Below are positions 13,291-29,865 of a stretch of 55,920 nucleotides of DNA, in pieces; position 1 is the stretch's first letter; every line of letters starts with the position of its first letter. The stretch is from Acidimicrobiales bacterium. Its GTDB lineage: Bacteria; Actinomycetota; Acidimicrobiia; Acidimicrobiales; CADCSY01. Below the pieces are notes generated by a model that was given only the letters and a program-made list of their open reading frames with translations, had not been told where the DNA came from and did no database searches. Location of the stretch: assembly GCA_050742255.1 (NCBI GenBank), contig JBOGHU010000127.1:1-55920 (forward strand), in the 5' to 3' direction. The position numbers were made by a program, and so were the translations under genes.

Positions 13291-13980
13291 ACCGCCCTCA
13301 TCACCGGCGCCTCCCGGGGCCTGGGCCTGGCCCTGGCCCGTAGCCTGGCCACCGGCGGGTGGCGCCTGGTGATCGACGCCAGGGAGCCGTCCGCCCTGGT
13401 GGCGGCGGCCTCCGAGCTGGGCGAGCGGACGGTCGTGCGGGTCGTGCCCGGCGACGTGGCCGACGAGGCTCACCGTCGGGCCCTCGTGCAGGCGGCGGGG
13501 GAGTGGGGGCGCCTCGACCTGGTCGTGCACAACGCCAGCGTCCTCGGCCCCAGCCCCCAGCCCCGGCTGCTCGACTACCCGCTGACGGCGCTCGAGGACG
13601 TCTACGCCGTCAACGTGCTGGCGCCGGTGCGGATCACCCAGCTGGCGCGTCCGCTGCTCGGGCCCGGCGCCTGCCTGATCTTCGTCACCTCCGACGCCGC
13701 GGTGGAGGCCTACCAGGGCTGGGGCGGCTACGGATCCTCCAAGGCCGCCCTCGAGCAGGCGGCGGCGGTGCTGGCCGTCGAGCACCCCGAGCTGCGGGTC
13801 TACCGGGTCGACCCCGGTGACATGAGGACCCGCATGCACCAGGAGGCCTTCCCCGGCGAGGACATCTCCGACCGGCCCCCGCCCGAGACCAGCGTACCGG
13901 GGCTGCTCGCCCTCATCGAGGGCGAGCTTCCCAGCGGCCGCTTCCGGGCCCGGGCCCCGAGCTCGGTGGCGGCGCCGTGA
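13276..13980 (+). CDS. SDR family oxidoreductase
   Basis: TGASRGLG cofactor motif, NAS, YGSSK catalytic motif. ATG 13276 (TTG 13267 is an alternative). Confidence 0.85.
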   Translation: MEPKRTALITGASRGLGLALARSLATGGWRLVIDAREPSALVAAASELGERTVVRVVPGDVADEAHRRALVQAAGEWGRLDLVVHNASVLGPSPQPRLLDYPLTALEDVYAVNVLAPVRITQLARPLLGPGACLIFVTSDAAVEAYQGWGGYGSSKAALEQAAAVLAVEHPELRVYRVDPGDMRTRMHQEAFPGEDISDRPPPETSVPGLLALIEGELPSGRFRARAPSSVAAP

Positions 13981-15050
13981 CCACCCTGGCCAGCCCCACG
14001 GGCGCGCCGCTCGCCTTCGAGGTGCCGGACGAGCTGATCGCCACCGCCCCGATAGAGTCCACCGGCCGCCGACGCGACCAGGCCCGCCTGCTGGTCGCCT
14101 CGAGGTCCGACGAGACCCTGGTCGACACCGTCTTCGCCGACCTGCCCCGCTTCCTCCGGCCCGGCGACGTGCTGGTGGTCAACACCTCGGCCACCCTCCC
14201 CGCCGCCGTCCCCTCCGGGGAGGGTCTGGTCCTCCACCTCTCGACGGAGCTGCCGGGCGGGCTGTGGCTGGTCGAGCTGCGCCGCCCCTGTGGCGCCGGG
14301 AGCCGGCCGTTCCTCGAGGGGCAGCCGGGTGCGGCCGTGGCGCTGGCAGGTGGCGGCCGGGCCGAGCTGCTGGTGCCGTTCCCCGCCGGGACCGCGGCGT
14401 CCGCCACCCGGGCTGGGGTCCGCCTCTGGCTGGCCACCCTCCGCTTCCCCACCCCCGTGCCCGCGTACCTGGCCGAGTAGGGCCGGCCCGTCCGCTACGG
14501 GTGTGGGGACACGTCGTGGCCGCTGTCGGCCTACCAGACCGTCTTCGCCGCCGATCCGGGCAGCGCCGAGATGCCCTCCGCCGCTCGGGCCTTCACCCCC
14601 GACCTGGTGACCACGCTGGTGGCCGCGGGCGTGGTCTTCGCGCCGATCGTGCTCCACGCCGGGCTGTCGTCACCCGAGACCGGTGAGCCACCTGCCCCGG
14701 AACGGTACCGGGTCCCGGCCACGTCGGCGGCGCTGGTGAACGCCGCCCGGGCCGGAGGCCACCGGGTCATCGCGGTCGGCACCACGACCACCCGGGCCCT
14801 CGAGACGGTGGCGGGTGCTGGCGGCGAGGTCCACCCCGGCGAGGGCTGGAGTGACCTGGTCATCTCCCCGGACCGGCCACCCCGCGCCGTGGACGGCCTC
14901 CTCACCGGTTGGCACGAGCCGGCGGCCTCGCACCTCCAGCTGGTGGAGGCGGTCGCGGGGCGAGTGACGCTAGAGCGCAGCTACGCCGCCGCCCTGGTCC
15001 ACCGCCACCGCTGGCACGAGTTCGGCGACCTCCACCTGGTGCTGCCGTGA
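13977..15050 (+). pseudogene. QueA-like S-adenosylmethionine:tRNA ribosyltransferase-isomerase family gene interrupted by an in-frame TAG (14478..14480)
   Basis: ORFs 13977..14480 and 14571..15050 share one frame. The sequence reads ...PAYLAE*GRPVRYGCGDTSWPLSAYQTVFAADPGSAEMPSAARAFT...VGTTTTRALE, colinear with QueA-like proteins. GTGA coupling to the SDR gene. Confidence 0.6.
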
Positions 15051-15234
15051 CCCGCCACCCGCGCCGCCGCGCCACCGCTGGTTAGCGCGCGGTCCACCCG
15101 TCCCTGCTCGGATCGGGCGCACACAAAGTGGCGCTGGGGGGCTTCCCACCCTCGGGGTAGGGAAGGATCGTCGGCCGGGCCGGGGTTGGGACCAGGGACG
15201 ACCGCCACGAGGCTTTGGAGAGCGAGGAGGCCCC

Positions 15235-16632
15235 ATGGGCCAGGACTACGACGTCATCGTCATCGGCGGGGGATCGGCGGGGGAGAACGCCGCCGACTAC
15301 GCCCACCGCGGTGGCCTCTCGGTGGCGCTGGTCGAGCGGGACCTGGTAGGGGGCGAGTGCTCGTACTGGGCGTGCATGCCCAGCAAGGCGCTGCTGCGAC
15401 CGGGCGAGGCGGTGGCGGCGGCCCGGCGGGTCCCCGGCGCCGCCGCTGCGGTCGTCGGCTCCCTCGACGTCGACGAGGTCCTGGCGTCCCGTGACGGCTT
15501 CGCCAGCCACTGGGACGACCAGGCCCAGGCCGACTGGGTGGCCGGTGCGGGGATCGACCTGCTCCGCGGCCACGGGCGCATCACCGGCGAGCGGACCGTC
15601 GAGGTCGAGGGCTCCGGCGGCACCGCCACCCTGGTGGCCCGGCGGGCGGTGGTGGTGGCCACCGGCTCGACGGCGGCGGTGCCGCCGGTGGAGGGCCTGG
15701 CCGACATCGCCGCCTGGGACAGCCGGGCCGTCACCACCGCCAAGGCGGTGCCCCGCCGGCTGGTGATCCTGGGCGGGGGCGTGGTGGGCGCGGAGATGGC
15801 CCAGGCCTGGCGGCGGCTGGGCTCGGAGGAGGTGACCGTGGTCGAGATGGCCGACCGGCTCCTGCCCAACGAGGAGCCCTTCGTCGGGGAGGAGCTGGCG
15901 GCGGCGTTCGGGGACGAGGGGATCGCGGTGGTGGTCGGGGCCCAGGCGGTGAAGGCGGCCCGCGAGGGGCCCGCCGCGCCGGTCACCCTGGCCCTGGCCG
16001 ACGGCACCGAGCTGGTCGCTGACGAGCTCCTGGTGGCGGTGGGACGGCGGCCGGTGACCACCGACCTGGGGCTCGAGACGGTCGGGCTGGAACCCGGCGG
16101 GGTGCTCGCCGTGGACGACCGCCTGGAGGTGGTGGACGCGCCCGGGGGGTGGCTGTACGCGGTGGGCGACGTCAACGGGCGGGCGCTCCTCACCCACCAG
16201 GGGAAGTACCAGGGCCGGGTGGTGGGCGAGGTCATCGCCGGCGGGGAGATCACCGCCTGGGCCGACCACCGGGCCCTTCCCCGGGTGGCCTTCACCGATC
16301 CCAACGTGGCGGCGGTGGGCCTGACGAAGCGCCAGGCCGCAGATGCCGGGCTGGACGTGCGCACCGTCTCCTACGACGTGGGCGCCACCGCCGCCGGTGC
16401 CCTCCACGGCCGGGGGGTGGGGGGCACCGCCCAGCTGGTGGTCGACCGGGCCCGCCAGGTCGTGGTGGGCGCCACCTTCGTGGGCCCGGGGGCGGGGGAG
16501 CTGCTCCACGCCGCCACCGTGGCGGTGGTGGGCGAGGTGACCATCGGCCGCCTCCGCCACGCCGTGCCCGCCTTCCCCACCATGAGCGAGGTGTGGCTGC
16601 GCCTGGTGGAGGCGTACCGCGGGGCCACCTGA
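15235..16632 (+). CDS. FAD-dependent pyridine nucleotide-disulfide oxidoreductase (dihydrolipoamide dehydrogenase/mycothione reductase-like)
   Basis: DVIVIGGGSAG FAD motif. Redox-active GGECSYWACMPSK (CxxxxC). Second Rossmann fold ILGGGVVGAEMA. Dimerisation domain. Confidence 0.9.
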   Translation: MGQDYDVIVIGGGSAGENAADYAHRGGLSVALVERDLVGGECSYWACMPSKALLRPGEAVAAARRVPGAAAAVVGSLDVDEVLASRDGFASHWDDQAQADWVAGAGIDLLRGHGRITGERTVEVEGSGGTATLVARRAVVVATGSTAAVPPVEGLADIAAWDSRAVTTAKAVPRRLVILGGGVVGAEMAQAWRRLGSEEVTVVEMADRLLPNEEPFVGEELAAAFGDEGIAVVVGAQAVKAAREGPAAPVTLALADGTELVADELLVAVGRRPVTTDLGLETVGLEPGGVLAVDDRLEVVDAPGGWLYAVGDVNGRALLTHQGKYQGRVVGEVIAGGEITAWADHRALPRVAFTDPNVAAVGLTKRQAADAGLDVRTVSYDVGATAAGALHGRGVGGTAQLVVDRARQVVVGATFVGPGAGELLHAATVAVVGEVTIGRLRHAVPAFPTMSEVWLRLVEAYRGAT

Positions 16633-16692
16633 GCCGGCCAGCGCCGGGGGCGCCGGGCGCGGGGCCACCGCTCCGGCTGCCACCATGGCGGC

Positions 16693-18225
16693 ATGGCCGA
16701 GGTGACGGTGGAGACGACCAGCGGTGCCCTCCGGGGCACCGTCGAGGACGGCGTGTGCCACTTCAGGGGCATCCCCTACGCCCAGGCTCCGGTGGGCGTC
16801 CGGCGGTTCCGCCCGCCGGTGCCGGTGGAGCCCTGGACCGGGGTGCGCCCGGCCATGAGCCCCGCACCCATCGCCGTCCAGCTCCCGTCCCCGCTCGACC
16901 AGATGGTGGCCCCGGCCACCGGGCTCACCCTCAGCGAGGACTGCCTGGCCCTCGACGTCATGACCCCGGGCCCCGACGGAGGCCCCCGGCCGGTGCTGGT
17001 GTGGATCCACGGGGGCGCCTTCCTCAACGGCTCCGGCTCCAGCCCGTGGTACGACGGCTCCTCCCTCGCCCGCCGGGGCGACGTGGTGGTGGTGTCGATC
17101 AACTACCGCTTGGGCGCCTTCGGCTTCCTCCACCTGGCTGACCTCTCGGGCGACGAGGGCTACGCCGGCAGCGGCAACGCCGGCCTCCTCGACCAGCTGG
17201 CCGCCCTGGCGTGGGTGGGGGAGAACATCGCCGCCTTCGGCGGGGACCCCGGCAACGTCACCGTGTTCGGGGAGTCGGCGGGGGCCATGAGCATCGGCGC
17301 CCTCCTGGGCGCGCCCGCCGCCCGAGGCCGGTTCCGGCGGGCCATCGTCCAGAGCGGGGCGGCCAGCAACGTCCACGACCGTGACCGGGCCACCGCGGTG
17401 GCCCGCCAGGTGCTCGACGCCCTGGGGCTGGGGCCCGGGGATGCGGACCGGCTCCAGGACGTGCCCGCCGACGACCTGCTGGCGGCCCAGGGCTCGGTGG
17501 CGGCACGGGCCAGCATCGCCGGGCTGGCCTTCCAGCCGGTGGTGGACGGCACGGTCCTGCCCGCCGAACCGCTGGAGGCGGTCGCCGCCGGCCAGGCCGG
17601 CGACGTCAACCTGCTGGCCGGCACCAACCGGGACGAGATGCGGCTCTTCGTGGCCCTCGAGCCGGCTCTGGCCGACATCGACCACGCCGGCCTCGCCGCC
17701 CGCCTGGCCGAGATCTTCGGGCCCGGCGCCGCCGAGCAGGCCCTGGCCACCTACCAGCGGGGCCGGGACGGCAAGGGGGCCGGCGAGGTGTGGACGGCGG
17801 TGCTCTCCGACTGGGTCTTCCGGGTGCCTGCCGTTCGCCTGGTCGAGCGGCAGGCGGTCCACCAGCCCCGGACCTACCTCTACCTGTTCACCTGGGCCAG
17901 CGCCGCCTTCGGGGGCCGCATGGGTTCCTGCCACGCCCTCGAGATCCCCTTCGTGTTCAACACCGTGGACCGCCCCGAGGTCCAGCTCTTCACCGGTCCC
18001 CTGACCGAGGAGATCGCCACCCTGGCCCGGGCCGTGCAGGACGCCTGGATCAGCTTCGCCCGCCACGGCCGCCCCGGCCACCCCGCGCTCCCGCCCTGGC
18101 CGGCGTACGACCCCGCCACCCGCCTCACCATGCTCCTGGGCGACCGCTGCGCGGTGGCGGCCGACCCCGGGGGGGCGGAGCTGTGCCTGTGGGACCACCG
18201 GGCGCCCCCCGACAGGGAGCCCTAG
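16693..18225 (+). CDS. carboxylesterase type B (para-nitrobenzyl esterase-like)
   Basis: FRGIPYAQAPVG, VWIHGGAF, nucleophile elbow FGESAGA. Confidence 0.92.
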   Translation: MAEVTVETTSGALRGTVEDGVCHFRGIPYAQAPVGVRRFRPPVPVEPWTGVRPAMSPAPIAVQLPSPLDQMVAPATGLTLSEDCLALDVMTPGPDGGPRPVLVWIHGGAFLNGSGSSPWYDGSSLARRGDVVVVSINYRLGAFGFLHLADLSGDEGYAGSGNAGLLDQLAALAWVGENIAAFGGDPGNVTVFGESAGAMSIGALLGAPAARGRFRRAIVQSGAASNVHDRDRATAVARQVLDALGLGPGDADRLQDVPADDLLAAQGSVAARASIAGLAFQPVVDGTVLPAEPLEAVAAGQAGDVNLLAGTNRDEMRLFVALEPALADIDHAGLAARLAEIFGPGAAEQALATYQRGRDGKGAGEVWTAVLSDWVFRVPAVRLVERQAVHQPRTYLYLFTWASAAFGGRMGSCHALEIPFVFNTVDRPEVQLFTGPLTEEIATLARAVQDAWISFARHGRPGHPALPPWPAYDPATRLTMLLGDRCAVAADPGGAELCLWDHRAPPDREP

Positions 18226-18420
18226 CCACGCCGGCCCCGGGGGATGGTGCCCGATGACCCCGAGGTCACGGCGGTGGCGACGGTTCAGCGGAGGGACGGG
18301 CCCGACGCCTCCTCCATCTGGCCTCGAGGGCCCGTGGGGGGAGCAGGCCATCGACCACGCTCCGGTAGGCCTCTCGCTGCCGTGCCCACCGGTACGGCTC
18401 TGCCACCTCGGGGCCGGCGC

Positions 18421-19003
18421 GTGGCCTCGGAGTGGCACGGGGACGACGGCAGCCGGTTCCTCCCCTACGACCCCGGCGAGGTGATCCGGAGCTTCTGGAG
18501 CGAGGGGTACCACCAGGTGATCGGTCCGGGCCTCCTGGCACCAGCCAAGAAGGTCGCCACGGCTCGACTACGACTCCTCCTACCCCGACACCGACCCCTT
18601 CGAGCCGCAGTCGGGCGGGTGCTGCAGCGTGCTGCCGTACCTGAACCGAGACACCGTCGAGCTGCCGATCACCCTGGTCCAGGACCACACGCTGTTCGTC
18701 ATCCTCGGCCACTCGGATGGGCGCCTGTGGATGGAGAAGGCGGACCATGTGAGGGGCCGGGGTGGCATGGCGCTGGTGATCACCCATCCCGACTACGTTT
18801 CCCACGAGGGCCTGCTCGACGCCTACCGGGCGCTGCTGGGAGGGTTCCGGGAAGATCCAGGTGCATGGCGGGCACTGCCGCGGGAGGTGAGCGCCTGGTG
18901 GCGGCGTCGTTCCGCCTCCCGCCTCGAGCCCACGGCGAGGGGCTGGCGGATCGTGGGGCCGGCGGCGAGCGAGGCGAGCGTCGTCTACAGCTCGCCGCGC
19001 TGA
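18421..19003 (+). pseudogene. 5'-truncated, frameshifted relic of a polysaccharide-deacetylase-family gene
   Basis: Frame of 18629..19003, open back to about 18520, reads ...LDYDSSYPDTDPFEPQSGGCCSVLPYLNRDTVELPITLVQDHTLF...MALVITHPDY. Weaker matching sequence (WHGDDGSRF...) sits in another frame upstream. There is no room for the N-terminal catalytic half before the esterase gene. Confidence 0.5.
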
Positions 19004-19032
19004 TCAGGGCGGCGGGAGGGAGCGGGGCCTGC

Positions 19033-20433
19033 CTACCGGAGAGGGCCGAACTGGCCCTCGGTGGGCTCCGCTCAACAGAACCACGGCTCGGTGAGCCGGG
19101 GCCTCCCCTCCACCGAGCCGGCGCCGACGGACCCCGGCCCGGCACCGAGGCCGACCGCCTCCCGCACCGCCCGGCTCACCGTCAGGTAGGTGGCGCCGGG
19201 TGGCTCGCCCGACGCCACCCCCGTCTCGACCAGGGTGGCCAGGCGGGCCTGGAGCTCGTCGACCCTGGGGTCGGCCGCCGACCACGTGTACGTGAGCCGC
19301 TCGGGGTCGTAGGGCCCGAGGTGGGGCCGCAGGTCGGCCCGGTCGAGCAGCAGCGAGCCCTCGGGCAGGAGCAGTCGGATGGTGTACTGCACGGGGTCGA
19401 CGTTGCCGACCAGGTCGTGGGCGGCCACGAAGTCGACCAGCTCCACCAGGTCGTCGAGGGTGGTCCAGGGCGTGAACGGCAGGAACGACGGCCGCACCTC
19501 GACCCCGTGCTCCCGCAGCAGCGCCGCCGCCCGGGCGGCGTCGGCCCGGGTGTGGCCCTTGTCCAGGCGGGCGAGGATCTCGTCGTTGACGCTCTCGAAG
19601 GCGGAGACCACGAACAGGCAGCCCAGCTCGGCCAGCTCGGCCCAGATCCCCTCGTGGCGGAGGATCAGCTCGACCTTGGTGGTGCAGTCGAAGGTCAGCT
19701 GGGGGAACCGCTGGTGGACGGCCCGGACCACCCGCAGGGAGTGGTGGACCCCGTTGAGGAAATCGGGGTCGCCGAAGGTGATGTGGCGGGCGCCGGCGCC
19801 GACCTGCTGGGCCACGTCGGCCACCACCACGTCCTCGCCGACGATGCGCAGGCGCCCGTCGTAGACGACCGGCACCGGGCAGTGGCGGCAGCGGTGGGCG
19901 CAGCCGTGGCTGGCCTCGGCGTAGCCCACCACCCGCTCCTCGCCGTGGAGGGCCAGGTGGGCGTAGCGCTCGAGGGGGGGGAGCAGGTCCCGGGCGGGGA
20001 CCTCGAAGTGGTTGCGGCCCAGATGGACGACCTGGGCGTCGGGGGCGGCGGTGGCGCCGGCGGGCTCGGTGGCCAGCCCGTCGACCCACTCGACCAGGGC
20101 CGGCTCGTACTCGCCGGCGATGACCCGGTCGGCCAGGGCGCCCACGGTGAGGTCCCGGCTGACCGGGGCGTAGAGGCCGTAGAGGCAGATCGGCAGGCCC
20201 GGGCGGTCCCGGCGCACGGCGGCTGCGGCCCGCAGGGCCAGGCGCATGGCGGTGTGCATGGGCACCGAGAAGGCCACCGCCCCCGCCCCCGAGACCAGCT
20301 CGGGGTCCCAGGGCTGCACCGCGAGGTCGAGGCAGGCCACGTCGTGGCCCCGGGCCCGCAGCGCCGCCGCCGGCGACGCCACGTGGAGGGGCTGGTGGCC
20401 CAGCTCGTAGGTGGAGACGAGCAGCACCCGCAC
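19033..20433 (-). CDS. B12-binding-domain/radical SAM selenoprotein with C-terminal CUAEP tail (TGA 19074..19072 read as Sec)
   Basis: GTG 20433. CAHRCRHC (CxxxCxxC) cluster motif. The ORF track stops at ...RLTEPWFC-TGA, but the next in-frame codons are GCG GAG CCC ... giving C-U-A-E-P-TEGQFGPLR, then TAG at 19035..19033. Confidence 0.8.
19041..19059 (-). promoter_or_regulatory. SECIS-like stem-loop
   Basis: Minus-strand GAGGGCC-AGUUC-GGCCCUC: perfect 7-bp stem, 5-nt loop with G at position 2. It starts 12 nt after the UGA. Confidence 0.55.
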
Positions 20434-20492
20434 GTCTTCGAGGCTACCGGAGGCCAGACCGCGACTGGTCGGCGGGTGGCGCAGCTGCGACC

Positions 20493-20840
20493 ATGGCGTC
20501 CGTGACGACGACGGCCTCCCCGCCTGCGGCCACGGCCGCGCCGCGCCGCTCCGACGTGCACCGCGCCTTCAGCGTCTCGATCCTCGTGTCGGCGGTCCGC
20601 TGCCTGCTCACCTACGTGGTCCTGCCGTTCGCCGCGCCCGCCGTCGGCGTCGCCACGGGGGTGGGGCCGTGGATCGGGATCCCCCTCAGCGGTGTGGCGG
20701 TGGCCGCCAACGTCGTGAGCATCCGACGCTTCTGGTTGGTCGGGCACCGCTGGCGGTGGGCCTACACGGCCGTGGGCTGCGGCGTCATCGCCCTGCTGGT
20801 CGTGCTCGTCGTCGGCGACGTCGCCGACCTGGTGAGGTGA
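20493..20840 (+). CDS. small hypothetical membrane protein
   Basis: ATG 20493. Three hydrophobic segments. Stop overlaps the next start (GTGA). Confidence 0.5.
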   Translation: MASVTTTASPPAATAAPRRSDVHRAFSVSILVSAVRCLLTYVVLPFAAPAVGVATGVGPWIGIPLSGVAVAANVVSIRRFWLVGHRWRWAYTAVGCGVIALLVVLVVGDVADLVR

Positions 20841-21424
20841 GCACGGTGGCGGCGACGCCGTCGGGCGACGAGCCGCTGCGGCCGTCCCCCGCCCGCTGGG
20901 CGTGGCTGGCGCTGGGCTGGACCGCCGTGGGGCTCGGCGGCCTGGGCGTCGTCGTCCCGGGCCTGCCCACCACCGGGTTCTTCGTGCTGGCGGCGTCCTG
21001 CTTCGCCCGGTCGAGCCCGCGCTTCGAGCGCTGGGTGCTCTCGCTGCCCACCATCGGCCCGCTGGTGGCAGACCACAGGGCCGGGTTGGGAATGCCCCGC
21101 CGGGCCAAGGTCACCGCCATCGCCATGATGGTCACCGCCGTCGCCGCCAGCGCCGGGCTCGCCCTCACCTCGGGGGCGGCCCGGCTCTCGGTGGTGGCGG
21201 CCGGCGCCGTCGGCGTCTGGTTCGTGGGGTGGCGGATCCCGACCCGCGAGCGCGTCGTCGCCGGGCTCACCGGTCCGGATCGACGACCACCACCTCCAGG
21301 CGGGCGTGGGCATCCCGCAGCGCCCCCTCCACCTCCTCGGGCGTCTCGCCCCGGGCGAAGAGGAAGCCCAGGTACCGGTCGCCCTCGGGCAGGGCCCGCA
21401 CCAGGCGGCCCCGGGTTATGGTGA
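20837..21424 (+). CDS. DUF454 (YbaN-like) inner membrane protein with a P/G/R-rich tail
   Basis: GLGGLGVVVPGLPTTGFFVLAASCFARSSPRFERW is the typical DUF454 N-terminus. The last 50-odd residues are antisense to the ATP-grasp gene 3' end. Confidence 0.65.
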   Translation: MSTVAATPSGDEPLRPSPARWAWLALGWTAVGLGGLGVVVPGLPTTGFFVLAASCFARSSPRFERWVLSLPTIGPLVADHRAGLGMPRRAKVTAIAMMVTAVAASAGLALTSGAARLSVVAAGAVGVWFVGWRIPTRERVVAGLTGPDRRPPPPGGRGHPAAPPPPPRASRPGRRGSPGTGRPRAGPAPGGPGLW

Positions 21425-22496
21425 TCTCCGCCCCGACCACGCCGGGGACGGCCCGGGCGGCGTCGACGCCCCGCACGTCCTCCAGGACCCCGGTGGCGGG
21501 GATGGGTATCATCATGACGCCCGAGGCGGCCGGCTCCCGCGCCAGCCCGTCGAGGGGCAGCCCGAGGGCGTGGCGGAGGATCAGCTCCTCCAGGGAGACG
21601 CCGGCCCCGAAGCGCAGCGCCCGCGAGCACAGGCCACCGATGGAGCGGGCGGCCAGCTCCAGCACCACCGCCTCGGACCCGGCCAGGCGAACCTCGGCGT
21701 GCACCGGCCCCTCGACCACGCCCAGCGCCGCCGCCGCCGCGGCGGCGGCCGCCACCACCGCGGCCTGGGCCTCCGGCGCCAGCCGGGACGGGGTGACGTA
21801 GATGGTCTCCTCGAAGTAGGGGCCCTCGAGCGGGTCGGGCTTGTCGAAGAGGGCCAGCACCTCCAGCCGGCCCCGTCCCAGCAAGCCCTCGACCGCCACC
21901 TCCACCCCGGGGACGTAGGCCTCCACCAGCAGGGAGGCGTCCCTCCCCTCGCCGGCGTCGGCGAGGATGGCCCGCACCCGGTCGCCCGCCGCCACCGCCC
22001 CTGCTGGGTCGTCGGCGCGGATCACCCCCCGGCTGCCCGACAGCGACACCGGCTTCACCACGCAGGGAAGGCCGACCTCGGTGGCCAGCCGGCCCAGGTC
22101 GGCGCCCGGCCCCGCCACCCGGAACGCGGGCTGGGCCACGCCCGCAGCGGCCAGGCGGGCCCGCATGGAGGCCTTGTCCCGGGTGGCGGCCACGGCGTCG
22201 GGAGGGTTGTGGGCCCACCCCAGGCGGGCGGCCACCAGCGCCGCCACGACCACACCCTGGTCGTCGACGGCCACCACCGCGTCGAGCGGGTGACGCCGGG
22301 CCCGCTCCACGACGGCGTCGGCAGCCTCCTCGGGGCGGTCGAGGGGGACGGTGAGCGCCCGGTCGCCCATGGAGCCAGCCAGGGCCTGGGCCTCCTCCGA
22401 GCCGATCACCACCTCGACCCCCAGGGCCGAGGCGGCCCGGAGGAAGTCGCCCGCCCGGTAGGTGGCGGTGGGCAGGAGCAGCAGCACCCGGGGCAC
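21267..22496 (-). CDS. ATP-grasp domain enzyme (carboxylate-amine ligase-like)
   Basis: GTG 22496. Pre-ATP-grasp plus ATP-grasp pattern (DKASMRARLAAAGV, PCVVKPVSLSGSRGV, LLVEAYVPGVEVAVEG, HAEVRL). Confidence 0.85.
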   Translation of the reverse strand: MPRVLLLLPTATYRAGDFLRAASALGVEVVIGSEEAQALAGSMGDRALTVPLDRPEEAADAVVERARRHPLDAVVAVDDQGVVVAALVAARLGWAHNPPDAVAATRDKASMRARLAAAGVAQPAFRVAGPGADLGRLATEVGLPCVVKPVSLSGSRGVIRADDPAGAVAAGDRVRAILADAGEGRDASLLVEAYVPGVEVAVEGLLGRGRLEVLALFDKPDPLEGPYFEETIYVTPSRLAPEAQAAVVAAAAAAAAALGVVEGPVHAEVRLAGSEAVVLELAARSIGGLCSRALRFGAGVSLEELILRHALGLPLDGLAREPAASGVMMIPIPATGVLEDVRGVDAARAVPGVVGAEITITRGRLVRALPEGDRYLGFLFARGETPEEVEGALRDAHARLEVVVVDPDR

Positions 22497-22513
22497 TCCC
22501 CTATGATGGGGGC

Positions 22514-23185
22514 ATGAGCGAGGTCCAGGGCGGACAGGAAGATCGACAGGGCCAGCAGTCCATCGTCACCATCACCGACAAGGCCCGCAGGAAGGTGCTG
22601 GCGCTGCGGGCGGGCGAGCCCAATGCCGAGCGGCTGGCCCTGTGGCTCGAGGTGGGAGGCGTCGCCGGGGACAGCTACACCTACGACATGTACTTCGAGA
22701 CCCTCGACAAGGCCGGTGACCACGACGCGGTGCAGCACCACGACGACCTGGACCTGGTCATCCCCGCCGGGAGCGTCGACAACGTCCGGGGCGCCACCCT
22801 CGACGTGTCCCGGGACCTGCTCAACCCGGGCATGGCCCTAACCAACCCCAACCGGCCGGCACCACCGGCCAGCCCGCCCATCGCCCGCCGACCGCCCTCC
22901 GAGCTCGGCGGCGACGTGGCCCAGCGGGTGCTGGCCGTCCTCGACCAGCAGGTGAACCCCAGCATCGCCACCCACGGTGGCCAGGCGGAGCTGGTGGCGG
23001 TCGAGGACGACGTCGCCTACCTGCGCCTCAGCGGCGGCTGCCAGGGCTGCGGCATGGCGACGGTCACCCTGAGCCAGGGGATCGAGGTGGCGGTCACCGA
23101 GGCCGTGCCCGAGATCTCCCGGGTGGTCGACGTCACCGACCACGCCTCCGGCACCAACCCCTACTACGAGGCAGCCAAGAAGTAG
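22514..23185 (+). CDS. Nfu/NifU-type Fe-S cluster assembly protein (HesB/IscA-like N-domain plus Nfu C-domain)
   Basis: C-terminal NPSIATHGGQAELVAVEDDVAYLRLSGGCQGCGMATVTL with a CxxC motif. Confidence 0.85.
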   Translation: MSEVQGGQEDRQGQQSIVTITDKARRKVLALRAGEPNAERLALWLEVGGVAGDSYTYDMYFETLDKAGDHDAVQHHDDLDLVIPAGSVDNVRGATLDVSRDLLNPGMALTNPNRPAPPASPPIARRPPSELGGDVAQRVLAVLDQQVNPSIATHGGQAELVAVEDDVAYLRLSGGCQGCGMATVTLSQGIEVAVTEAVPEISRVVDVTDHASGTNPYYEAAKK

Positions 23186-23907
23186 TGGCGGGCCAGGACT
23201 GGGCTTCCCTGGCCGCCCGGCTCTCGGCTGCCCTGCGGCCCACCGCGCCGCCCGTCGCCATGACCTTCTCGGCCCGTCCCCCCTCGGGCGTGGACCCCTT
23301 CGACGACCCCATGCCCCCGCCGCTGCCCGACGGCCGCACCGGAAGGGTCCCCGCCGGCTGCGTGTTCTGGATGCGGGGTGTCGAGCGCACCTTCAGCACG
23401 GTCCCCGCCGACCACGGCAACTGCAGCGTGGGCAGCCTCACCCACGGGCTGGCCACCCTCGACCAGGTCGCGGGGAACGACGACGTGGCCGCCCTCCTCG
23501 CCAGCGGCTGGGTGAGCGCCGACGACATCCCCCAGATCCCGGTGGTCGCCGAGGGGCCCGGCGCCGTCACCTACGGGCCGCTGGCGGAGACGCCGGTCGA
23601 CCCCGACGTGGTGCTGGTCCGCCTCACCCCCCGGTCGCTCATGGTGCTCTCCGACGCCCTCCCGGGGCTGTCGGTGGAGGGCAAGCCCCAGTGCCACATC
23701 GTGGCCGTGGCCAAGGAGCGGGGCGAGGTGGCGGCCAGCGTGGGCTGCATGCTGAGCCGGGTCCGCACCGGCATGCCCAACACCGAGGTGACCTGCGCCA
23801 TCCCCGCCGACCGGCTGGGCGAGGTCATCGACGCCGTGAGCCGTACCGCCGAGGTCGACGCCACGGTGGCCGCCTACGCCGCCGAGGACTCCCGCCGCTT
23901 CCGGTGA
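23185..23907 (+). CDS. DUF169 domain protein
   Basis: GTG 23185 overlaps the TAG stop by 1 nt. DUF169-like pattern (PAGCVFW..., NCSVGSLTHG..., CHIVA...). Assignment from recall. Confidence 0.7.
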   Translation: MAGQDWASLAARLSAALRPTAPPVAMTFSARPPSGVDPFDDPMPPPLPDGRTGRVPAGCVFWMRGVERTFSTVPADHGNCSVGSLTHGLATLDQVAGNDDVAALLASGWVSADDIPQIPVVAEGPGAVTYGPLAETPVDPDVVLVRLTPRSLMVLSDALPGLSVEGKPQCHIVAVAKERGEVAASVGCMLSRVRTGMPNTEVTCAIPADRLGEVIDAVSRTAEVDATVAAYAAEDSRRFR

Positions 23908-23938
23908 GGCCGTCGCCCCCCGGGCTCAGCCCGCCGGC

Positions 23939-24011
23939 GCCGACCGGGTGACCACCTCGTAGGACCACAGCTCGCTCGACATCGCCACCGGCGCCTGGCC
24001 CGACGGGTGGG
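23939..24011. repeat. left copy of the 73-bp direct repeat (displaced 3' end of the ABM monooxygenase gene; attL-like)
   Basis: Aligns to 45932..46004 at a constant offset of 21993 nt. 69 of 73 positions are identical by manual alignment. On the minus strand it encodes ...HPSGQAPVAMSSELWSYEVVTRSA, versus ...HPSGQAPVAMSSELWSYQVVTRSA in the intact gene. Confidence 0.85.
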
Positions 24012-24352
24012 ACCGAGGCACGGAGAGGCCCCCAAGGGCAGCCAGTGCCGTGACCAGAAACACCTCGCACGGTTTCTCGCTGGCATTGCCACGTCTCCCA
24101 GGCCCATGGCCAGCACCTTTGGCTCGGCAGTCTCCAGTAGGAGAACCGAGAAACGATGCGAGGTGCTCGCAGGCACGGCACCAGATCGACCGGCGCGACG
24201 GAAAACCGTCCTCGGGAACGAGGGACGGCGTGAGCATGACCGGCGATCCTCCCCCGGGACATGACCACAAGGGTCAGCTCTGGGGGAACGAACTGGAGCT
24301 GGGAGCATTCCGTTGCCAATCACCGAGAGAGCCACGAGCTGCTTGGTCGGGG
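24009..24352 (+). repeat. copy 1 of a roughly 205-nt structured leader-like element (interrupted by a 142-nt insertion)
   Basis: Homologous to 32358..32560. Conserved hairpins at 24206..24228 and 24275..24301, each with GGGAACGA in the loop. Lies upstream of the DegT operon. Confidence 0.6.
24041..24182. mobile_element. MITE-like insertion / long imperfect palindrome
   Basis: Present in copy 1 but absent from copy 2 of the leader element. The 37-nt arms 24044..24080 and 24146..24182 are inverted repeats, 27 of 37 matching. Confidence 0.4.
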
Positions 24353-24504
24353 TCATGGCGGCGCTCCTGTGGAGATCCGACTCGCCCAGGGAAGGCTCGT
24401 GGTTCCTCCCCGGACCGCTCGCCACGGGGCCGCCGCTTCCGCTCGGCGGCACCTTCGACCAGCTCCGCCGGCACTGCCTTGGCGCAGGGGAGGGGTGAGC
24501 AGGC

Positions 24505-25734: not shown

Positions 25735-26771
25735 AGGAGCCCGTCAGGATCGGCCTCATCGGGGTGGGGGGCATCGCCCAGTCGTACCTCCAGGTCTTCC
25801 GCAACCTGGAGAAGGAGGCCCGCCTCGTCGCCGTCGCCGACGTCCGTGGCGGACAGGCCGACGCCGCTGCCAAGGCCATGGGGTGCCGCGGCTACGACTC
25901 CCATTCCGCCCTCGTGGAAGGTGAGGACGTCGAGGCGGTCCTCATCTGCACGCCGCCTGCGACGCACCCCGAGATCGCCGCCCACTTCCTCGAGCGCGGC
26001 ATCTCCGTGCTGTCGGAGAAGCCGCTCGCCACCGACGTCGGGAGCGCCGAGATGCTCCTCAAGACCGCCGAGAGCAACGGGGTGATCCTGACGATGTCCT
26101 CGAAGTACCGCTACGTCGACGAGGTCGTCAGAGCCAAGAGCATCCTCGCGTCGGGGATCCTCGGCGAGATCATCCTCCTCGAGAACGTCTTCGCCACCCG
26201 CGTCGAGATGTCCCGGCGCTGGAACTCCGATCCGCGCATCAGCGGTGGCGGCGTCCTCGTCGACAACGGCACGCACTCCGTCGACCTCATCCGCTACCTC
26301 CTCGGCCCGATCGCGGAGGTGGCGGCGGTGGAGGGCAAGCGCGTGCAGGGCCTCGCCGTCGAGGACACGGTTCAGCTGTTCGTCAAGACCGCGGATGGCG
26401 TGAGGGGCACCGTGGACCTGTCGTGGAGCATCGACAAGCAGCGCGACCCCTACATCGACATCTACGGGTCGAACGGCACCGTCAGCGTCGGCTGGAAGGT
26501 ATCGAGGTTCCGCCAGGCGGCCAGCCCCGACTGGGTCGTGTTCGGCGGCGCCTACGACAAGATCGGGTGCCTCGGCGCCCAGCTCCAGAACTTCTGCCGG
26601 GCTGTGCGGAACGAGGAGCAGCTCCTCATCACCGCCGAGGACGCCATCGCCTCGATCGAGGTCATCCAGAAGGCCTACGCGTCACTCGCTCGCCCTCGCT
26701 GGGTCCGGGTCGAAGGCGCACACCGCGATGGTGGGCGTGGAGGAGTCCACGCTCGGGCGCGGTCGGCCTGA
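25731..26771 (+). CDS. Gfo/Idh/MocA-family sugar oxidoreductase
   Basis: GTGA overlap with the upstream gene. N-terminal Rossmann fold (IGLIGVGGIAQSY), EKPLA motif. Confidence 0.88.
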   Translation: MKEPVRIGLIGVGGIAQSYLQVFRNLEKEARLVAVADVRGGQADAAAKAMGCRGYDSHSALVEGEDVEAVLICTPPATHPEIAAHFLERGISVLSEKPLATDVGSAEMLLKTAESNGVILTMSSKYRYVDEVVRAKSILASGILGEIILLENVFATRVEMSRRWNSDPRISGGGVLVDNGTHSVDLIRYLLGPIAEVAAVEGKRVQGLAVEDTVQLFVKTADGVRGTVDLSWSIDKQRDPYIDIYGSNGTVSVGWKVSRFRQAASPDWVVFGGAYDKIGCLGAQLQNFCRAVRNEEQLLITAEDAIASIEVIQKAYASLARPRWVRVEGAHRDGGRGGVHARARSA

Positions 26772-27427
26772 TGCACTTCGTGCACGACACCGCCATCGTG
26801 GAGGACGGAGTCGAGATCAGCCCGGGCACCTCCATCTGGGACAACGTGCACATCCGGGCTCCGGCCCGGATCGGATCCGAGTGCATCGTGGGCGAGAAGA
26901 CCTACATCGCCGGCGGTGTGGCCATCGGCAACCGGGTCAAGGTCAACGCCCACGTCTACATCTGCAGCGCGGTGACGATCGAGGACGGGGCCATGATCAG
27001 CGCCGGGACGATCTTCACCAACGACCGGTTCCCCCGGGCGACCGCCCCCGACCTGTCTGCCCTCCGCCCGTGCGAGCCCGTCGAGCACACCCGGCCGACG
27101 CTGGTGAGGGAGGGGGCGACCATCGGTGCGGCCAGCGTCATCGGGTGCGACCTCGTCGTCGGACGCTGGAGCATGGTCGGGATGGGATCGGTGGTCACGA
27201 GCTCGGTCCCGGACTTCCACCTCGTCGTGGGCCAGCCCGCCCGCTCCATCGCCTGCGTGTGCCGGTGCGGCGAGCCCTTCCTTCGCCTCGCCGGGGATCG
27301 CCCGTCGGAACCGAGCCACCTGGCCTGCCCCGCCTGCTCCCGCCGGTACTCCGTGCGGGGCGACGCGGTCACCGAGATCGACCCCGGGCCGGGTCGCACC
27401 TCGGCCGGCGGCGAGGCAACGGGGTGA
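26771..27427 (+). CDS. left-handed beta-helix sugar N-acetyltransferase (WbpD/WlbB-like) with a Cys-rich zinc-ribbon-like tail
   Basis: ATG 26771 overlaps the TGA stop (TGATG). Hexapeptide repeats, TNDRFPRA motif. C-terminal CVCRCG...(19 aa)...CPAC. Confidence 0.85.
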   Translation: MHFVHDTAIVEDGVEISPGTSIWDNVHIRAPARIGSECIVGEKTYIAGGVAIGNRVKVNAHVYICSAVTIEDGAMISAGTIFTNDRFPRATAPDLSALRPCEPVEHTRPTLVREGATIGAASVIGCDLVVGRWSMVGMGSVVTSSVPDFHLVVGQPARSIACVCRCGEPFLRLAGDRPSEPSHLACPACSRRYSVRGDAVTEIDPGPGRTSAGGEATG

Positions 27428-29865
27428 GCGGCGTGCCCGGGACCTCCCGATGGGCCGTAGTCGGCGGCGGCATGCTGGGTCTCACGCTCGCCCATCGCCT
27501 CGCTCGCCACGGCTGCGACGTGACCGTGCTCGAGGGCGCTCCCCGCCTCGGCGGGCTCGCCGGCGCCTGGAGCCTCGACACCGTGGTCTGGGACCGCCAC
27601 TATCACGTCACCCTGCTGTCGGACTCGCACCTCCGGGCTCTCCTGGCCGAGCTGGGGCTGGAGGACACCATGGAGTGGAGGCAGACCCGTGCCGGGGTTT
27701 ACAGCGACGGGCAGCTGCACTCCGTCTCCAACACGGTCGAGCTCCTTCGCCTCCCCGGCCTGGCGCTGGTCGACAAGCTGCGGCTCGGCTTGACCATCTT
27801 CTACGGCTCGAAGGTGCGGGACTGGCGCCGGCTGGAGCGTGTGCCGGTCGAGCGATGGCTCAGGAGGTGGTCGGGGAACCGGACGTTCGAGCGCCTGTGG
27901 TTGCCGTTGCTGCGCGCCAAGCTGGGTGAGAGCTACCGGGAGTCGTGCGCCGCCTTCATGTGGGCCACCATCCAGCGCCTCTACGCGGCGCGGCGAGGGG
28001 GCCTCAAGAAGGAGATGTTCGGCTACGTCCCCGGCGGCTACGCCCGCATCCTCGAGCGGTTCGCCGAAGTCCTCGCCGCTGAAGGCGTACGGCTGGAGCT
28101 CGGATGCCGGGTCTCTCAGATCGCGTCCACCGGAGGCGACGTCGAGGTGACCGTCCCCGATGGTGGCTCCATGAGGTTCGACCATGTCGTCGTCACCGCG
28201 TCCCCCTCTGTGGCCGCCCGGCTGATCGACGGGCTCTGCGCTCGAGAGCGGGCCCGCCTCGAGGCCCTGCGCTACCAAGGGGTCGTCTGCGCCTCGCTCC
28301 TGCTCGAGCGACCTCTGTCGCCGTACTACCTCACGTACATCACCGACGAGACTCCCCTTACCGCGGTGGTGGAGATGTCGGCCTTCGTCGACCGTAGCCA
28401 ATTCGCGGGCAGGTCGCTCGTCTACCTCCCGAAGTACTGTCCCGCCGACGACCCTCTCATGAACGCGTCTGACGACGAGGTGGAAGATCTGTTCCTCGCC
28501 TCGCTCGAGAGGATGTACCCCGAGTTCCACCGAGATGATGTCGCCTGTTTCCGTGTCTCGCGGGTCCGAGAGGTCTTCGCCATACCGACGCTCTCGTACT
28601 CCCAGGGTGTGCCGGGGTTCGACTGCACCGTCCCTGGGGTCCACGTGGTGAACTCCTCCCAGATCATCAACGGCACGCTGAACGTGAACGAGACCGTGCA
28701 GCTGGCGGAGAGGGCGGTCCGGTCCCTCCTCGAGGGGGTCGGCACCCCGGTCCGCCCGGCGCCCGCCCCTCGACCCCCCCCTCGACCCACCCCGGTCGAC
28801 GGGCCGGGAGGGCGGGTGGCCCGCAAGCCGCTGGCCGGCCTGTCGCTCGACCTCGACGACGTGTGGTCCTACATGAAGACCCACGGTGATCCTGGCTGGG
28901 AGGATCTGCCGTCTTACCTGGACGTGGTCGTGCCGAGGGCGCTGGGCTTCCTCCGCCAGCGCCACTTGACGATCACCTGGTTCGTGGTGGGCCAGGACGC
29001 GGCCCTGGAGAGGAACCGCTCCCTGCTCGCCTCGATAGCCGAGGCCGGTCACGAGATCGGCAACCACTCCTTCCTCCACGAGCCGTGGCTGCACCTCTAC
29101 TCGCGAGAGGCGATCGAGGAGGAGCTCGCCAGGGCCGACACGGCCATCGAGGAGGCGACCGGTCGGCGCCCGGACGGCTTCCGAGGACCGGGCTTCAGCC
29201 TCTCTCATGACGTCCTGGCCGTCCTCGGTGAGCGCGGGTTCCGCTACGACGCCTCCACGCTGCCGACCTACACCGGCCCGTTGTCGGGCCTGTTCTTCTC
29301 GAGGACCATGCGAGAGATGGATCCCGAAGACAGGGCCCGGCGCAAGGGTGCGTACGGCTCCTTCCGGGATGGCACGCGTCCGCTGAAGCCGTATCGGTGG
29401 AGGGCCGACGGCTCCTCCCTGCTGGAGCTGCCCGTCACCACCATGCCCATACTCCGTACGCCCATCCACATGACCTACCTGCTGTACATGAGCCAGCTCT
29501 CCCCGAGGCTGGCCAGGGCCTACTTCGGCTCTGCCCTCCGGCTCTGCCGCATCACCGGCGTGGCGCCGTCGATCCTCCTCCACTCCCACGACTTCGCCGG
29601 CTCTGACGACGTCGAGCAGCTGTCGCACTTCCCGGGCATGAGCCTTCCCAGCGACGTCAAGGTGAGGCGGATGGCTGAGCTCCTCGACCAGCTCTCCCGG
29701 TCGTTCCAGGTCGTCCCCATGGGCCGTCTCGCTGACGACGTGGCGTCGTCGGAGGGGCTGCGTCTCATCCAGCCGAGGTTCTTCCACCGGGGGCGCAACG
29801 GGCGGGCGGGGCCTGGGTCCGCTGGGGGACAACGGTCCGCTCTCCCCGTAGGAGGACCGCCATGA
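27424..29865 (+). CDS. fusion protein: FAD/NAD(P)-binding oxidoreductase (amine-oxidase/desaturase-like) plus polysaccharide deacetylase domain
   Basis: GTG 27424 (GTGA overlap). VVGGGMLGLTLAHRLARHGCDVTVLEGAPRLGG dinucleotide fold. Pro-rich linker PAPAPRPPPRPTP. NodB-like half (ITWFVVGQDA...GHEIGNHSFLHE...GFRGPGF...YDAS). Confidence 0.8.
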   Translation: MSGVPGTSRWAVVGGGMLGLTLAHRLARHGCDVTVLEGAPRLGGLAGAWSLDTVVWDRHYHVTLLSDSHLRALLAELGLEDTMEWRQTRAGVYSDGQLHSVSNTVELLRLPGLALVDKLRLGLTIFYGSKVRDWRRLERVPVERWLRRWSGNRTFERLWLPLLRAKLGESYRESCAAFMWATIQRLYAARRGGLKKEMFGYVPGGYARILERFAEVLAAEGVRLELGCRVSQIASTGGDVEVTVPDGGSMRFDHVVVTASPSVAARLIDGLCARERARLEALRYQGVVCASLLLERPLSPYYLTYITDETPLTAVVEMSAFVDRSQFAGRSLVYLPKYCPADDPLMNASDDEVEDLFLASLERMYPEFHRDDVACFRVSRVREVFAIPTLSYSQGVPGFDCTVPGVHVVNSSQIINGTLNVNETVQLAERAVRSLLEGVGTPVRPAPAPRPPPRPTPVDGPGGRVARKPLAGLSLDLDDVWSYMKTHGDPGWEDLPSYLDVVVPRALGFLRQRHLTITWFVVGQDAALERNRSLLASIAEAGHEIGNHSFLHEPWLHLYSREAIEEELARADTAIEEATGRRPDGFRGPGFSLSHDVLAVLGERGFRYDASTLPTYTGPLSGLFFSRTMREMDPEDRARRKGAYGSFRDGTRPLKPYRWRADGSSLLELPVTTMPILRTPIHMTYLLYMSQLSPRLARAYFGSALRLCRITGVAPSILLHSHDFAGSDDVEQLSHFPGMSLPSDVKVRRMAELLDQLSRSFQVVPMGRLADDVASSEGLRLIQPRFFHRGRNGRAGPGSAGGQRSALPVGGPP

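Follow-up and report, generated by a model that had tools for sequence, protein, structure and literature searches.

The window analysed here is a stretch of 55,920 nucleotides from a bacterium of the order Acidimicrobiales. Its minus strand carries a gene for a radical SAM protein, for which the deposited CDS encodes 453 aa and ends at 19072. The corresponding ORF (20433..19075) has the C-terminus ...EPWFC and runs into a TGA codon (19074..19072). This codon is followed by 12 in-frame codons (AEPTEGQFGPLR) and then by TAG (19035..19033), i.e., the minus strand reads CCG TGG TTC TGT TGA, the 12 codons and TAG. If the TGA is read as selenocysteine (Sec), the full-length gene (19033..20433, minus strand) extends from a GTG start at 20433 to the TAG as its true stop and has 466 codons, Sec454 counted. 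The tail that follows Sec, A-E-P-T-E-G-Q-F-G-P-L-R (19036..19071, minus strand), is read here as translated, and E456, P457 and Q461 within it are invariant in the family described below. A first-pass annotation of the window had drawn attention to this C-U-A-E-P frame, the TGA and TAG codons and a hairpin nearby, and all of its sequence statements were reproduced.

An assembly error was excluded because a second assembly, GCA_975255135.1 (locus L081), is identical in sequence at the Sec site. TGA is an ordinary stop codon in the window, where it ends 29 of the 38 ORFs; the genetic code is therefore taken as standard and the recoding as local. Among the TGA-terminated ORFs of the window, that of the radical SAM protein alone has a coding-like extension (GC2 0.58, GC3 0.92) that is not merely the next gene in the same frame. 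The fold downstream of it (-23.1 kcal/mol) is one of the two most stable in this set, and, next same-frame genes excepted, no other TGA-terminated ORF of the window combined a coding-like extension with an equally stable downstream fold.

The protein contains a B12-binding domain (PF02310, residues 4-115, 36.4 bits) and a Radical_SAM domain (PF04055, residues 175-336, 57.8 bits). A CxxxCxxC motif (C178/C182/C185; 19879..19902, minus strand), which provides the ligands of the radical SAM [4Fe-4S] cluster, is invariant in 72 of 72 family members. When scored with U entered as C and with the tail included, the extended protein matched NF040546, "CUAEP/CCAEP-tail radical SAM (seleno)protein", at 596 bits (cut-off 500; E = 4.6e-179), and the match spanned residues 3-463 and profile positions 1-467 of 468. 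The defining features of this family are all present, namely a radical SAM core with CxxxCxxC, a B12-binding-like N-terminal domain and the C-terminal C-[U/C]-A-E-P motif, which occurs here as ...WFC-TGA-AEPT. The first-pass annotation had pointed to a family named for this tail and having no assigned function; the family exists, the extended protein is a full-length member of it, and NF040546 indeed has no known function. Nothing in the protein differs in kind from the family, but its deposited CDS is cut at the Sec codon. NCBI nevertheless gives the shortened protein the family name. The family is large and spread over several phyla: 7,992 of 8,000 scored candidates matched at E <= 1e-30, a count that includes paralogues such as ArsL-like proteins, and 564 genome stretches were matched.

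Twelve nucleotides after the UGA begins a SECIS-type hairpin (19041..19059, minus strand), with a 7-bp stem GAGGGCC/GGCCCUC and a 5-nt loop AGUUC; the perfect stem, loop size and distance are exactly as the first-pass annotation had given them. The hairpin alone has a predicted free energy of -13.6 kcal/mol (z = -4.3), and none of 200 shuffled sequences was as stable. Perfect 7-bp hairpins occur at a frequency of about 0.002 per nucleotide per strand in the window, which has a G+C content of 72.5%, and about 0.026 would be expected at the right place after a given TGA. Published criteria for bacterial SECIS (bSECIS) elements comprise a loop of 3-9 nt, an upper stem of 4-16 bp, a G in the first two loop positions, a UGA-to-loop distance of 16-37 nt and a minimum free energy (MFE) of at most -7.5 kcal/mol (PMC13188914). 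The hairpin agrees with every one of them: its 5-nt loop has G-U at positions 2-3, the apical loop lies 19 nt from the UGA, and stem length and stability are as given above. The earlier remark that position and loop G fit bacterial SECIS elements thus holds against the published consensus.

The hairpin is also conserved. In 37 distinct TGA loci, 94.6% of the cells of the stem alignment were paired in the same register, and compensatory changes affecting both sides were found in 6 of the 7 pairs. This level of pairing was reached by none of 500 shuffles, and slid controls gave 25-61%. Mean MFE was -12.9 kcal/mol in Sec loci versus -7.5 kcal/mol in loci with Cys at this position (p = 3e-9). The hairpin is absent from Cys loci, in one of which (L007) a decaying copy remains. 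Non-conservation of the hairpin in orthologous loci had been named beforehand as an observation that would count against Sec; instead, the hairpin is kept, with compensatory changes, where the codon is TGA.

In its general layout, a stem-loop within the coding region just 3' of the UGA, the element resembles the bSECIS model, whose archetype is that of E. coli fdhF. It differs in that its sequence is unlike any Rfam SECIS family, in that no conserved lower stem was detectable, and in that the element itself partly codes for the conserved Q-F-G of the tail. Rfam SECIS models gave no match at gathering score in the whole window and none between 18950 and 19150 even at E <= 10; Rfam covers bacterial SECIS elements poorly. 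A covariance model built by us found the known site as its sole match. A lower stem enclosing the UGA was also considered; such a stem looks plausible in single folds, but across 40 loci it gained nothing over shuffled 3' flanks (mean z = +0.2) and was rejected.

That the hairpin is instead a transcription terminator, an mRNA-stability element or a pausing element behind a real stop codon, as a G+C-rich stem-loop near the end of an annotated ORF and the lack of Rfam SECIS matches could suggest, is extremely improbable, since it is followed by CTCCGGTAGGCAGG with no T-run, the terminator scan made no call, its loop codes for Q-F in a fixed frame register across the 37 loci, and it is found only where the codon is TGA, in surroundings that evolve as coding sequence.

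The UGA itself (19072..19074, minus strand) directly follows the invariant Cys453. In 78 orthologous loci, codon 454 is TGA in 40, which come from several phyla, and TGC or TGT in 38, and A/S-E-P follows in frame in all of them; the Cys homologues that the first-pass annotation had proposed to look for thus align Cys with the TGA. Positions W451, F452, C453, U/C454, E456 and P457 are invariant in 72 family members, and at least nine Sec/Cys switches have occurred among these sequences. In the four codons after TGA, the entropy at third positions was 1.28, 0.49, 1.60 and 1.25, and 0-0.48 at positions 1 and 2. The tail codons vary mainly at third positions and are therefore translated. Among the representatives of the best 120 protein clusters, 81 end at ...WFC and 39 run on with CAEP. 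The first-pass annotation had described selenoproteins as uncommon in Actinomycetota; Sec forms, however, make up the majority of the closest relatives, and many of the genome loci with this gene are Actinomycetota MAGs, so that in this part of the phylum Sec cannot be called rare.

Family membership, the alignment of Cys with Sec, translated tail codons and a hairpin that is conserved and covaries are all established by computation; the results demonstrate translation past the UGA, not which residue goes in. The codon could, on this ground, be read by a standard near-cognate tRNA (Trp or Cys) or under an altered genetic code rather than by Sec-tRNA. Such decoding is very improbable: most ORFs of the window end in TGA, the position aligns with Cys only, which is the classic Cys/Sec signature, and the locus has kept a dedicated hairpin that covaries and agrees with the SECIS consensus.

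Somewhat less improbable, although still unlikely, is that the TGA is a genuine stop and the protein ends at ...WFC, the tail and hairpin being inherited relics left by loss of the Sec machinery or by a recent TGC-to-TGA nonsense change. TGA serves as a normal stop in the window, the public annotation closes the CDS there, and neither a gene for Sec machinery nor tRNASec was found in the window. Against this, neither the tail nor the perfect 7-bp stem has decayed, both are shared with relatives of only 71-73% protein identity, and the changes in the A-E-P-T codons relative to these proteins are synonymous. A relic hairpin would not stay perfect for long, because the hairpin decays in loci where position 454 became Cys. 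The same arrangement recurs in all 40 TGA loci, Cys453 and residue 454 are invariant, and the related enzyme ArsL makes no product without its tail. Among the 78 orthologous loci, all of which continue in frame, no close homologue genuinely terminates at ...FC.

The TGA near the end of the radical SAM gene is thus almost certainly a Sec codon that has its own recoding hairpin. We assign a probability of about 0.88 to the complete reading, in which the UGA at 19074..19072 is decoded as Sec, the hairpin at 19059..19041 serves as the SECIS element and the product has 466 residues. In the proposed mechanism, the hairpin, lying within the coding sequence, would recruit SelB-GTP-Sec-tRNASec to a ribosome that has paused at the UGA, and translation would yield a radical SAM protein ending W-F-C-U-A-E-P-T-E-G-Q-F-G-P-L-R rather than the 453-residue database protein.

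Actual insertion of Sec in this organism is what we infer from these data, and the capacity for Sec decoding is assumed. Full Sec machinery has been reported from another order of the class Acidimicrobiia. No tRNA was found in the 55.9-kb window and no tRNASec in 60 related loci (ARAGORN). Likewise, selA, selB and selD were not found in the window by NCBIfam and Pfam scans of the neighbours (10613-29865) and of ORFs in gaps left by the composition filter or by inspection of the other ORFs by eye. None of selA, selB, selD or tRNASec adjoins the gene in the 60 related loci, and no Sec machinery genes were found on the 18-kb contig of the second assembly.

The neighbourhood of the gene provides information on its possible function. 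An ATP-grasp enzyme of the L-amino-acid-ligase type (21267..22496, minus strand; Pfam ATP-grasp_4, LAL_C2 and ATPgrasp_N) is a conserved partner: across 80 loci, its gene is the immediate upstream neighbour on the same strand in 54 and occupies another place within 6 kb in a further 10 (64/80), and it is missing in about 14 of the 80 that have enough flanking sequence. Divergent from it is a gene for an NfuA-like Fe-S carrier (22514..23185, plus strand), which has a Pfam NifU domain and a TIGR03341 match below cut-off; an Nfu-type neighbour is present in 58 of the 80 loci, rearranged layouts included. The ATP-grasp and Nfu genes are the only neighbours that recur widely.

In this genome, two genes on the opposite strand part the radical SAM gene from its usual ATP-grasp partner, one for a small membrane protein of 115 aa (20493..20840, plus strand) and one for a small DUF454 membrane protein (20846..21424, plus strand). 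No homologue of either was found in the 80 related loci (tblastn), and the two genes are context that lies outside the conserved module. The first-pass annotation had listed these two membrane proteins and the ATP-grasp enzyme correctly, but its "polysaccharide-deacetylase relic" at 18521..19003 did not hold up, with no supporting Pfam or NCBIfam profile match even at E <= 5. At some of the loci, a protein that we take, from our own reading of its sequence, to belong to DUF169 and a possible DsrE-like protein adjoin the gene. Because they do so in only 10-13 loci and are unlinked to the Sec state, they were left out of the system.

The nearest solved structure to the ATP-grasp enzyme is that of the L-amino acid ligase BL00235 (3VOT, E = 8e-35, nearly full-length alignment). 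The partner shares the ATP-grasp_4 and LAL_C2 domains with L-amino acid ligases such as BL00235 and BacD; similarity to these enzymes is low, and their substrate specificity therefore cannot be transferred to it. BL00235 produces Met-Gly and Met-Met. To our knowledge, no L-amino acid ligase has been described as the partner of a radical SAM enzyme of the CUAEP-tail type.

The second-best family for the radical SAM protein is ArsL (NF040542), with 300.3 bits over residues 3-406, under the cut-off of 450. Judged by these profile scores, the CUAEP-tail family is the closest paralogue of this enzyme, a radical SAM protein of arsinothricin biosynthesis. By cleavage of SAM, ArsL generates a 3-amino-3-carboxypropyl (ACP) species, which it couples to As(III). 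The C-terminal cysteines of ArsL bind this As(III) and are required for formation of the C-As bond; loss of the tail abolished product formation and left iron and sulfur content unchanged. In architecture the two families agree, and both carry a vicinal Cys pair towards the C-terminus. However, the ArsL tail, RCCLKC (CCxxC), offers three ligands, whereas RCCLKC is missing here and WFC[U/C]AEP offers two thiol/selenol positions. The genomic associates also appear to differ: those of ArsL are arsM and arsQ, neither of which was named in profile scans of the window neighbours (approximately 13.2-25.7 kb) or found among the recurring neighbours of the 80 loci, and the recurring partner here is the ATP-grasp ligase.

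Adjacent Cys and Sec, placed near the C-terminus in the present protein, are also found in other selenoproteins with a CU motif (HgcA, SAO-locus proteins and MerT-like proteins) and in the GCUG of thioredoxin reductase, but these proteins have unrelated folds, and the motif here is carried by a radical SAM enzyme. CU motifs act as redox-active selenenylsulfides. They have also been proposed as ligands of soft metals. No close solved structure of the radical SAM protein was found in a PDB sequence search; the nearest folds are those of class B radical SAM enzymes, e.g., OxsB, AprD4, TsrM and MgmA, all of them enzymes with organic substrates. Disorder is predicted for the segment that follows the CC pair. 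The idea that the tail binds an auxiliary Fe-S cluster was rejected because the invariant Cys positions in the 72 members, CxxxCxxC and the C-U/C pair only, leave just two invariant thiol/selenol positions outside CxxxCxxC, which are too few; the Fe and S content of ArsL after removal of its tail also speaks against it.

Close paralogy to ArsL suggests that the enzyme may transfer an ACP group to a soft element bound at its Cys-Sec tail. We put this forward tentatively, as a model built on paralogy and gene neighbourhood. In such a reaction, the substrate, a soft element or chalcogen, would be bound by the flexible Cys-Sec tail and kept close to the [4Fe-4S]/SAM site. The ACP-derived amino acid could then be handed to the L-amino-acid-ligase-type ATP-grasp enzyme for formation of a peptide bond; methionine itself is an ACP thioether. 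Delivery of the Fe-S cluster would fall to the Nfu-type protein encoded nearby.

An equally tentative alternative accepts Sec but assigns it another role, with the Cys-Sec tail acting as a redox shuttle or hydrogen-atom donor while the enzyme carries out ordinary 5'-deoxyadenosyl radical chemistry on an organic substrate made by the ATP-grasp enzyme. A selenenylsulfide would then re-reduce the active site or quench a product radical, in the manner of the C-terminal GCUG of thioredoxin reductase or of the cysteines at the C-terminus of class I ribonucleotide reductase. Redox shuttles such as mammalian thioredoxin reductase have a vicinal Cys-Sec on a flexible C-terminus as their hallmark, and bacterial Sec residues are mostly redox-active. 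The low predicted order of the segment that carries C-U, the fold shared with class B enzymes of organic substrates and the fact that no metal or metalloid resistance gene stands out among the recurring neighbours are consistent with such a role. On the other hand, in ArsL, the closest characterised relative by sequence, the C-terminal cysteines bind substrate and do not shuttle electrons, and the curator of NF040546 ties CU motifs to heavy-metal chemistry.

Carrying the ACP-transfer model further, one may speculate that the radical SAM, ATP-grasp and Nfu genes form a widespread, undescribed three-gene module of soil Actinomycetota, Chloroflexota and Acidobacteriota whose product is a peptide that includes an organo-element amino acid derived from ACP. 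This amino acid might be a seleno-, telluro-, arseno- or stibio-analogue of methionine or glutamate, and in ArsL-like chemistry the selenol of the tail would bind the element as a ligand and offer it to the ACP species. We regard this extended proposal as doubtful, more so than ACP transfer itself.

The Sec recoding described here is correct but not new, since NF040546 is already catalogued as a selenoprotein family, and by itself it will not surprise specialists. What is new is the conserved L-amino-acid-ligase-type ATP-grasp partner and the Nfu-type neighbour; a full-text search turned up a single paper that names the CUAEP/CCAEP-tail family. Thirteen residues are missing from the public protein record, among them Sec454 and the AEP tail, to which the family owes its name. 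The same shortening affects the 81 clusters ending at ...WFC, and gene callers still lose the business end of the enzyme. The nearest characterised relative, ArsL, catalyses one of the oddest radical SAM reactions known, and the conserved ATP-grasp and Nfu neighbours provide a concrete functional hypothesis for the family. If the three-gene module is real, it would represent a second natural radical SAM route to carbon-metalloid or carbon-chalcogen bonds, and Sec would serve in it as a substrate-binding ligand rather than as a redox centre.

The radical SAM gene under study starts with a GTG codon at 20433 on the minus strand and reads ...R-L-T-E-P-W-F-C up to an in-frame TGA at 19074..19072. 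Directly past this codon, the same frame continues with GCG GAG CCC ACC GAG GGC CAG TTC GGC CCT CTC CGG and closes at a TAG (19035..19033). The first-pass annotation had proposed that the TGA encodes Sec, and re-reading of the sequence confirmed its coordinates for the ORF, the TGA, the tail and a hairpin downstream. An assembly error is excluded because the sequence is identical at this site in a second public assembly (GCA_975255135.1). Of the 38 ORFs in the window, 29 stop at TGA, which points to a standard genetic code and to a recoding confined to this site. The window itself comprises an entire contig of an Acidimicrobiales MAG. Among the TGA-terminated ORFs of the window, only this one is followed by a coding-like extension that is not merely the next gene in the same frame, and its downstream fold (-23.1 kcal/mol) is among the two most stable.

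NCBIfam NF040546, named 'CUAEP/CCAEP-tail radical SAM (seleno)protein', was matched at 596 bits (cut-off 500) by the 466-residue protein when Cys stood in for the UGA, and the alignment spans profile positions 1-467 of 468; the family named in the first-pass annotation thus exists and covers nearly the whole protein. Pfam matches included a B12-binding-like domain and the radical SAM core. The Sec reading itself is not new: the family is already catalogued as one of selenoproteins, and the deposited NCBI protein carries the family name, although it ends at the UGA after 453 residues. In our literature search, the family was mentioned only by the Haft 2022 preprint, which lists it as an uncharacterised CU-motif selenoprotein. 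By accession, NF040546 is absent from a 2026 review of prokaryotic selenoproteomes.

We fetched 80 orthologous loci from species-representative genomes, and the codon following ...WFC could be read in 78 of them. It was TGA in 40 and TGC or TGT in 38, i.e., Cys homologues place Cys at the UGA position, and all 78 continue in frame with A/S-E-P-T/S/G/L/R (mostly T). Residues E456, P457 and Q461 are invariant in Sec and Cys forms alike. In the TGA loci, the four codons past the UGA have third-position entropies of 1.28, 0.49, 1.60 and 1.25, versus 0-0.48 at positions 1 and 2, a pattern of codon variation that is a signature of translated sequence under purifying selection. Among the best 120 protein clusters, 81 terminate exactly at ...WFC and 39 run on with CAEP.

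The hairpin (19059..19041, minus strand; GAGGGCC-AGUUC-GGCCCUC) begins 12 nt past the TGA. The window has a G+C content of 72.5%, and perfect 7-bp hairpins occur in it at approximately 0.002 per nt per strand; therefore, the expected number at a suitable spacing from any one TGA is approximately 0.026. Folded in isolation, the element was more stable than all 200 shuffles (z = -4.3). It falls within every range of the published bacterial SECIS consensus, with a 5-nt loop (3-9 nt), a perfect 7-bp stem (4-16 bp), a UGA-loop distance of 19 nt (16-37 nt) and an MFE of -13.6 kcal/mol (below -7.5 kcal/mol); loop position 2 is G, where the consensus has G in the first two loop positions, and is followed by U. 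The proposed fit in position and loop G was therefore borne out, and so was conservation: across 37 distinct TGA loci the register is constant, standard pairs fill 94.6% of the hairpin cells and six of the seven pairs have changes on both sides, values matched by 0 of 500 shuffles, while control partners slid by 1-3 columns paired in only 25-61% of cells. Mean MFE was -12.9 kcal/mol in TGA loci versus -7.5 kcal/mol in Cys loci, which are without the hairpin (p = 3e-9). A terminator reading was rejected, as no T-run lies 3' of the hairpin and the terminator scan made no call there. Rfam contained no SECIS family matching the element. A lower stem around the UGA, suggested by single folds, was also rejected, since it did not outperform shuffled flanks. 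Just upstream of the UGA, within the conserved R-L-T-E-P-W-F-C codons, a 6-bp/3-nt-loop hairpin (19084..19098, minus strand) followed by TGGTTCTGTT was terminator-like in the scan and probably arises as a by-product of peptide conservation.

A rough neighbor-joining tree of 72 members, with the tail left out, needs at least nine Sec/Cys switches and, with midpoint rooting, gives Sec as the root state. The MAGs that carry Sec forms are labelled Actinomycetota, Chloroflexota, Acidobacteriota and KSB1. One Solirubrobacterales locus (L007, 7360..7404, plus strand) has TGT at the Sec position and retains a nearly intact but decaying hairpin copy (GAGAACC-AGTTT-GGTCCTC, one mismatch; SECIS model score 38 bits), as would fit a recent replacement of Sec by Cys. 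Two close homologues (L039 and L056) come from MAGs labelled Bifidobacterium breve and Burkholderiales, where they lie on contigs of short or medium length; these contigs are probably mis-binned, since the sequences group with soil Actinomycetota members.

Genes for tRNASec, SelA, SelB and SelD were found neither in the window, nor on the 18-kb contig of the second assembly, nor beside the gene in the 60 related loci examined; in the window, profile scans covered the neighboring ORFs and those in gap regions, and the other ORFs were read by eye. The ability of the Acidimicrobiales host to decode Sec is therefore an inference. According to a preprint, all 84 complete genomes of Actinomarina, which belongs to another order of the same class, have the full Sec machinery. 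Taken together, the 40 TGA versus 38 Cys loci, the translated tail and the covarying SECIS-type hairpin make the annotated stop a probable Sec codon, with a probability of roughly 0.88, so that the first-pass annotation is supported in its interpretation as well as in its observation.

The only widely conserved neighbors of the radical SAM gene encode an ATP-grasp enzyme and an NfuA-like Fe-S carrier. In 54 of the 80 loci, the gene for the former (22496..21267, minus strand, in the window; ATP-grasp_4 and LAL_C2 domains) immediately precedes the radical SAM gene in the same orientation, and in another 10 it lies elsewhere within 6 kb. The NfuA-like gene occurs in 58 of the 80 loci and is mostly transcribed divergently from the ATP-grasp gene. 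This linkage survives rearrangements in Acidobacteriota and Chloroflexota. In the window, the pair is split by genes for a 115-aa membrane protein and a DUF454 protein (20493..21424, plus strand), neither seen in the other orthologous loci, and the radical SAM gene therefore needs its own promoter here. As called, the DUF454 gene runs convergently into the ATP-grasp gene and shares about 158 bp with its 3' end.

Other genes of the window include a pyridine nucleotide-disulfide oxidoreductase (15235..16632, plus strand; dihydrolipoyl dehydrogenase 298 bits, mercuric reductase MerA 285 bits, both below cut-off), located about 2.4 kb from the selenoprotein gene and not conserved beside it in other loci. 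A QueA-like gene (tRNA preQ1(34) SAM ribosyltransferase-isomerase; 13821..15050, plus strand) has one in-frame stop at 14478..14480 (...AYLAE*GRPVRYG...), between an N-terminal part matching QueA profile positions 7-68 and a C-terminal part matching Pfam PF02547 positions 147-322; this stop is TAG, not TGA, and hence not Sec, and the gene may be a pseudogene or contain a sequencing error. In one long stop-to-stop ORF (26404..29865, plus strand), an FAD amine-oxidase-like region (PRK07233, 453 bits) and a polysaccharide-deacetylase region occur together; the ORF lies in an apparent sugar-modification cluster with a DegT aminotransferase (by profile match) and with glycosyltransferases and a UDP-GlcNAc 2-epimerase identified only from reading translations.

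With regard to function, the second-best family for the radical SAM protein was ArsL (300 bits, residues 3-406, below the ArsL cut-off). [quoted passage not shown] Whereas ArsL has three tail cysteines, the CUAEP/CCAEP family has a C-U/C pair, which together with a CxxxCxxC triad comprises its only invariant cysteines, too few for an auxiliary cluster. In an AlphaFold model of a Cys homologue (pLDDT 88.5 overall), confidence drops around the CC pair and disorder is predicted for the residues past it. By fold, the closest solved structures are those of the class B radical SAM enzymes OxsB, AprD4, TsrM and MgmA. Among proteins of solved structure, the ATP-grasp enzyme is closest to the L-amino acid ligase BL00235 (E = 8e-35), whose products include Met-Gly and Met-Met. 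From these observations, we tentatively suggest ArsL-like chemistry, in which a soft element held out by the Cys-Sec tail would meet an ACP species and the ATP-grasp partner would ligate the resulting amino-acid product. The main rival reading is about as likely; in it, the enzyme would carry out ordinary 5'-deoxyadenosyl chemistry, and the tail would serve as a selenenylsulfide redox shuttle or as a hydrogen-atom donor. Beyond the catalogue entry, these analyses provide formal covariation support for the SECIS element, a conserved ATP-grasp and Nfu neighborhood, and a testable hypothesis, based on ArsL, for what this uncharacterised enzyme family does.
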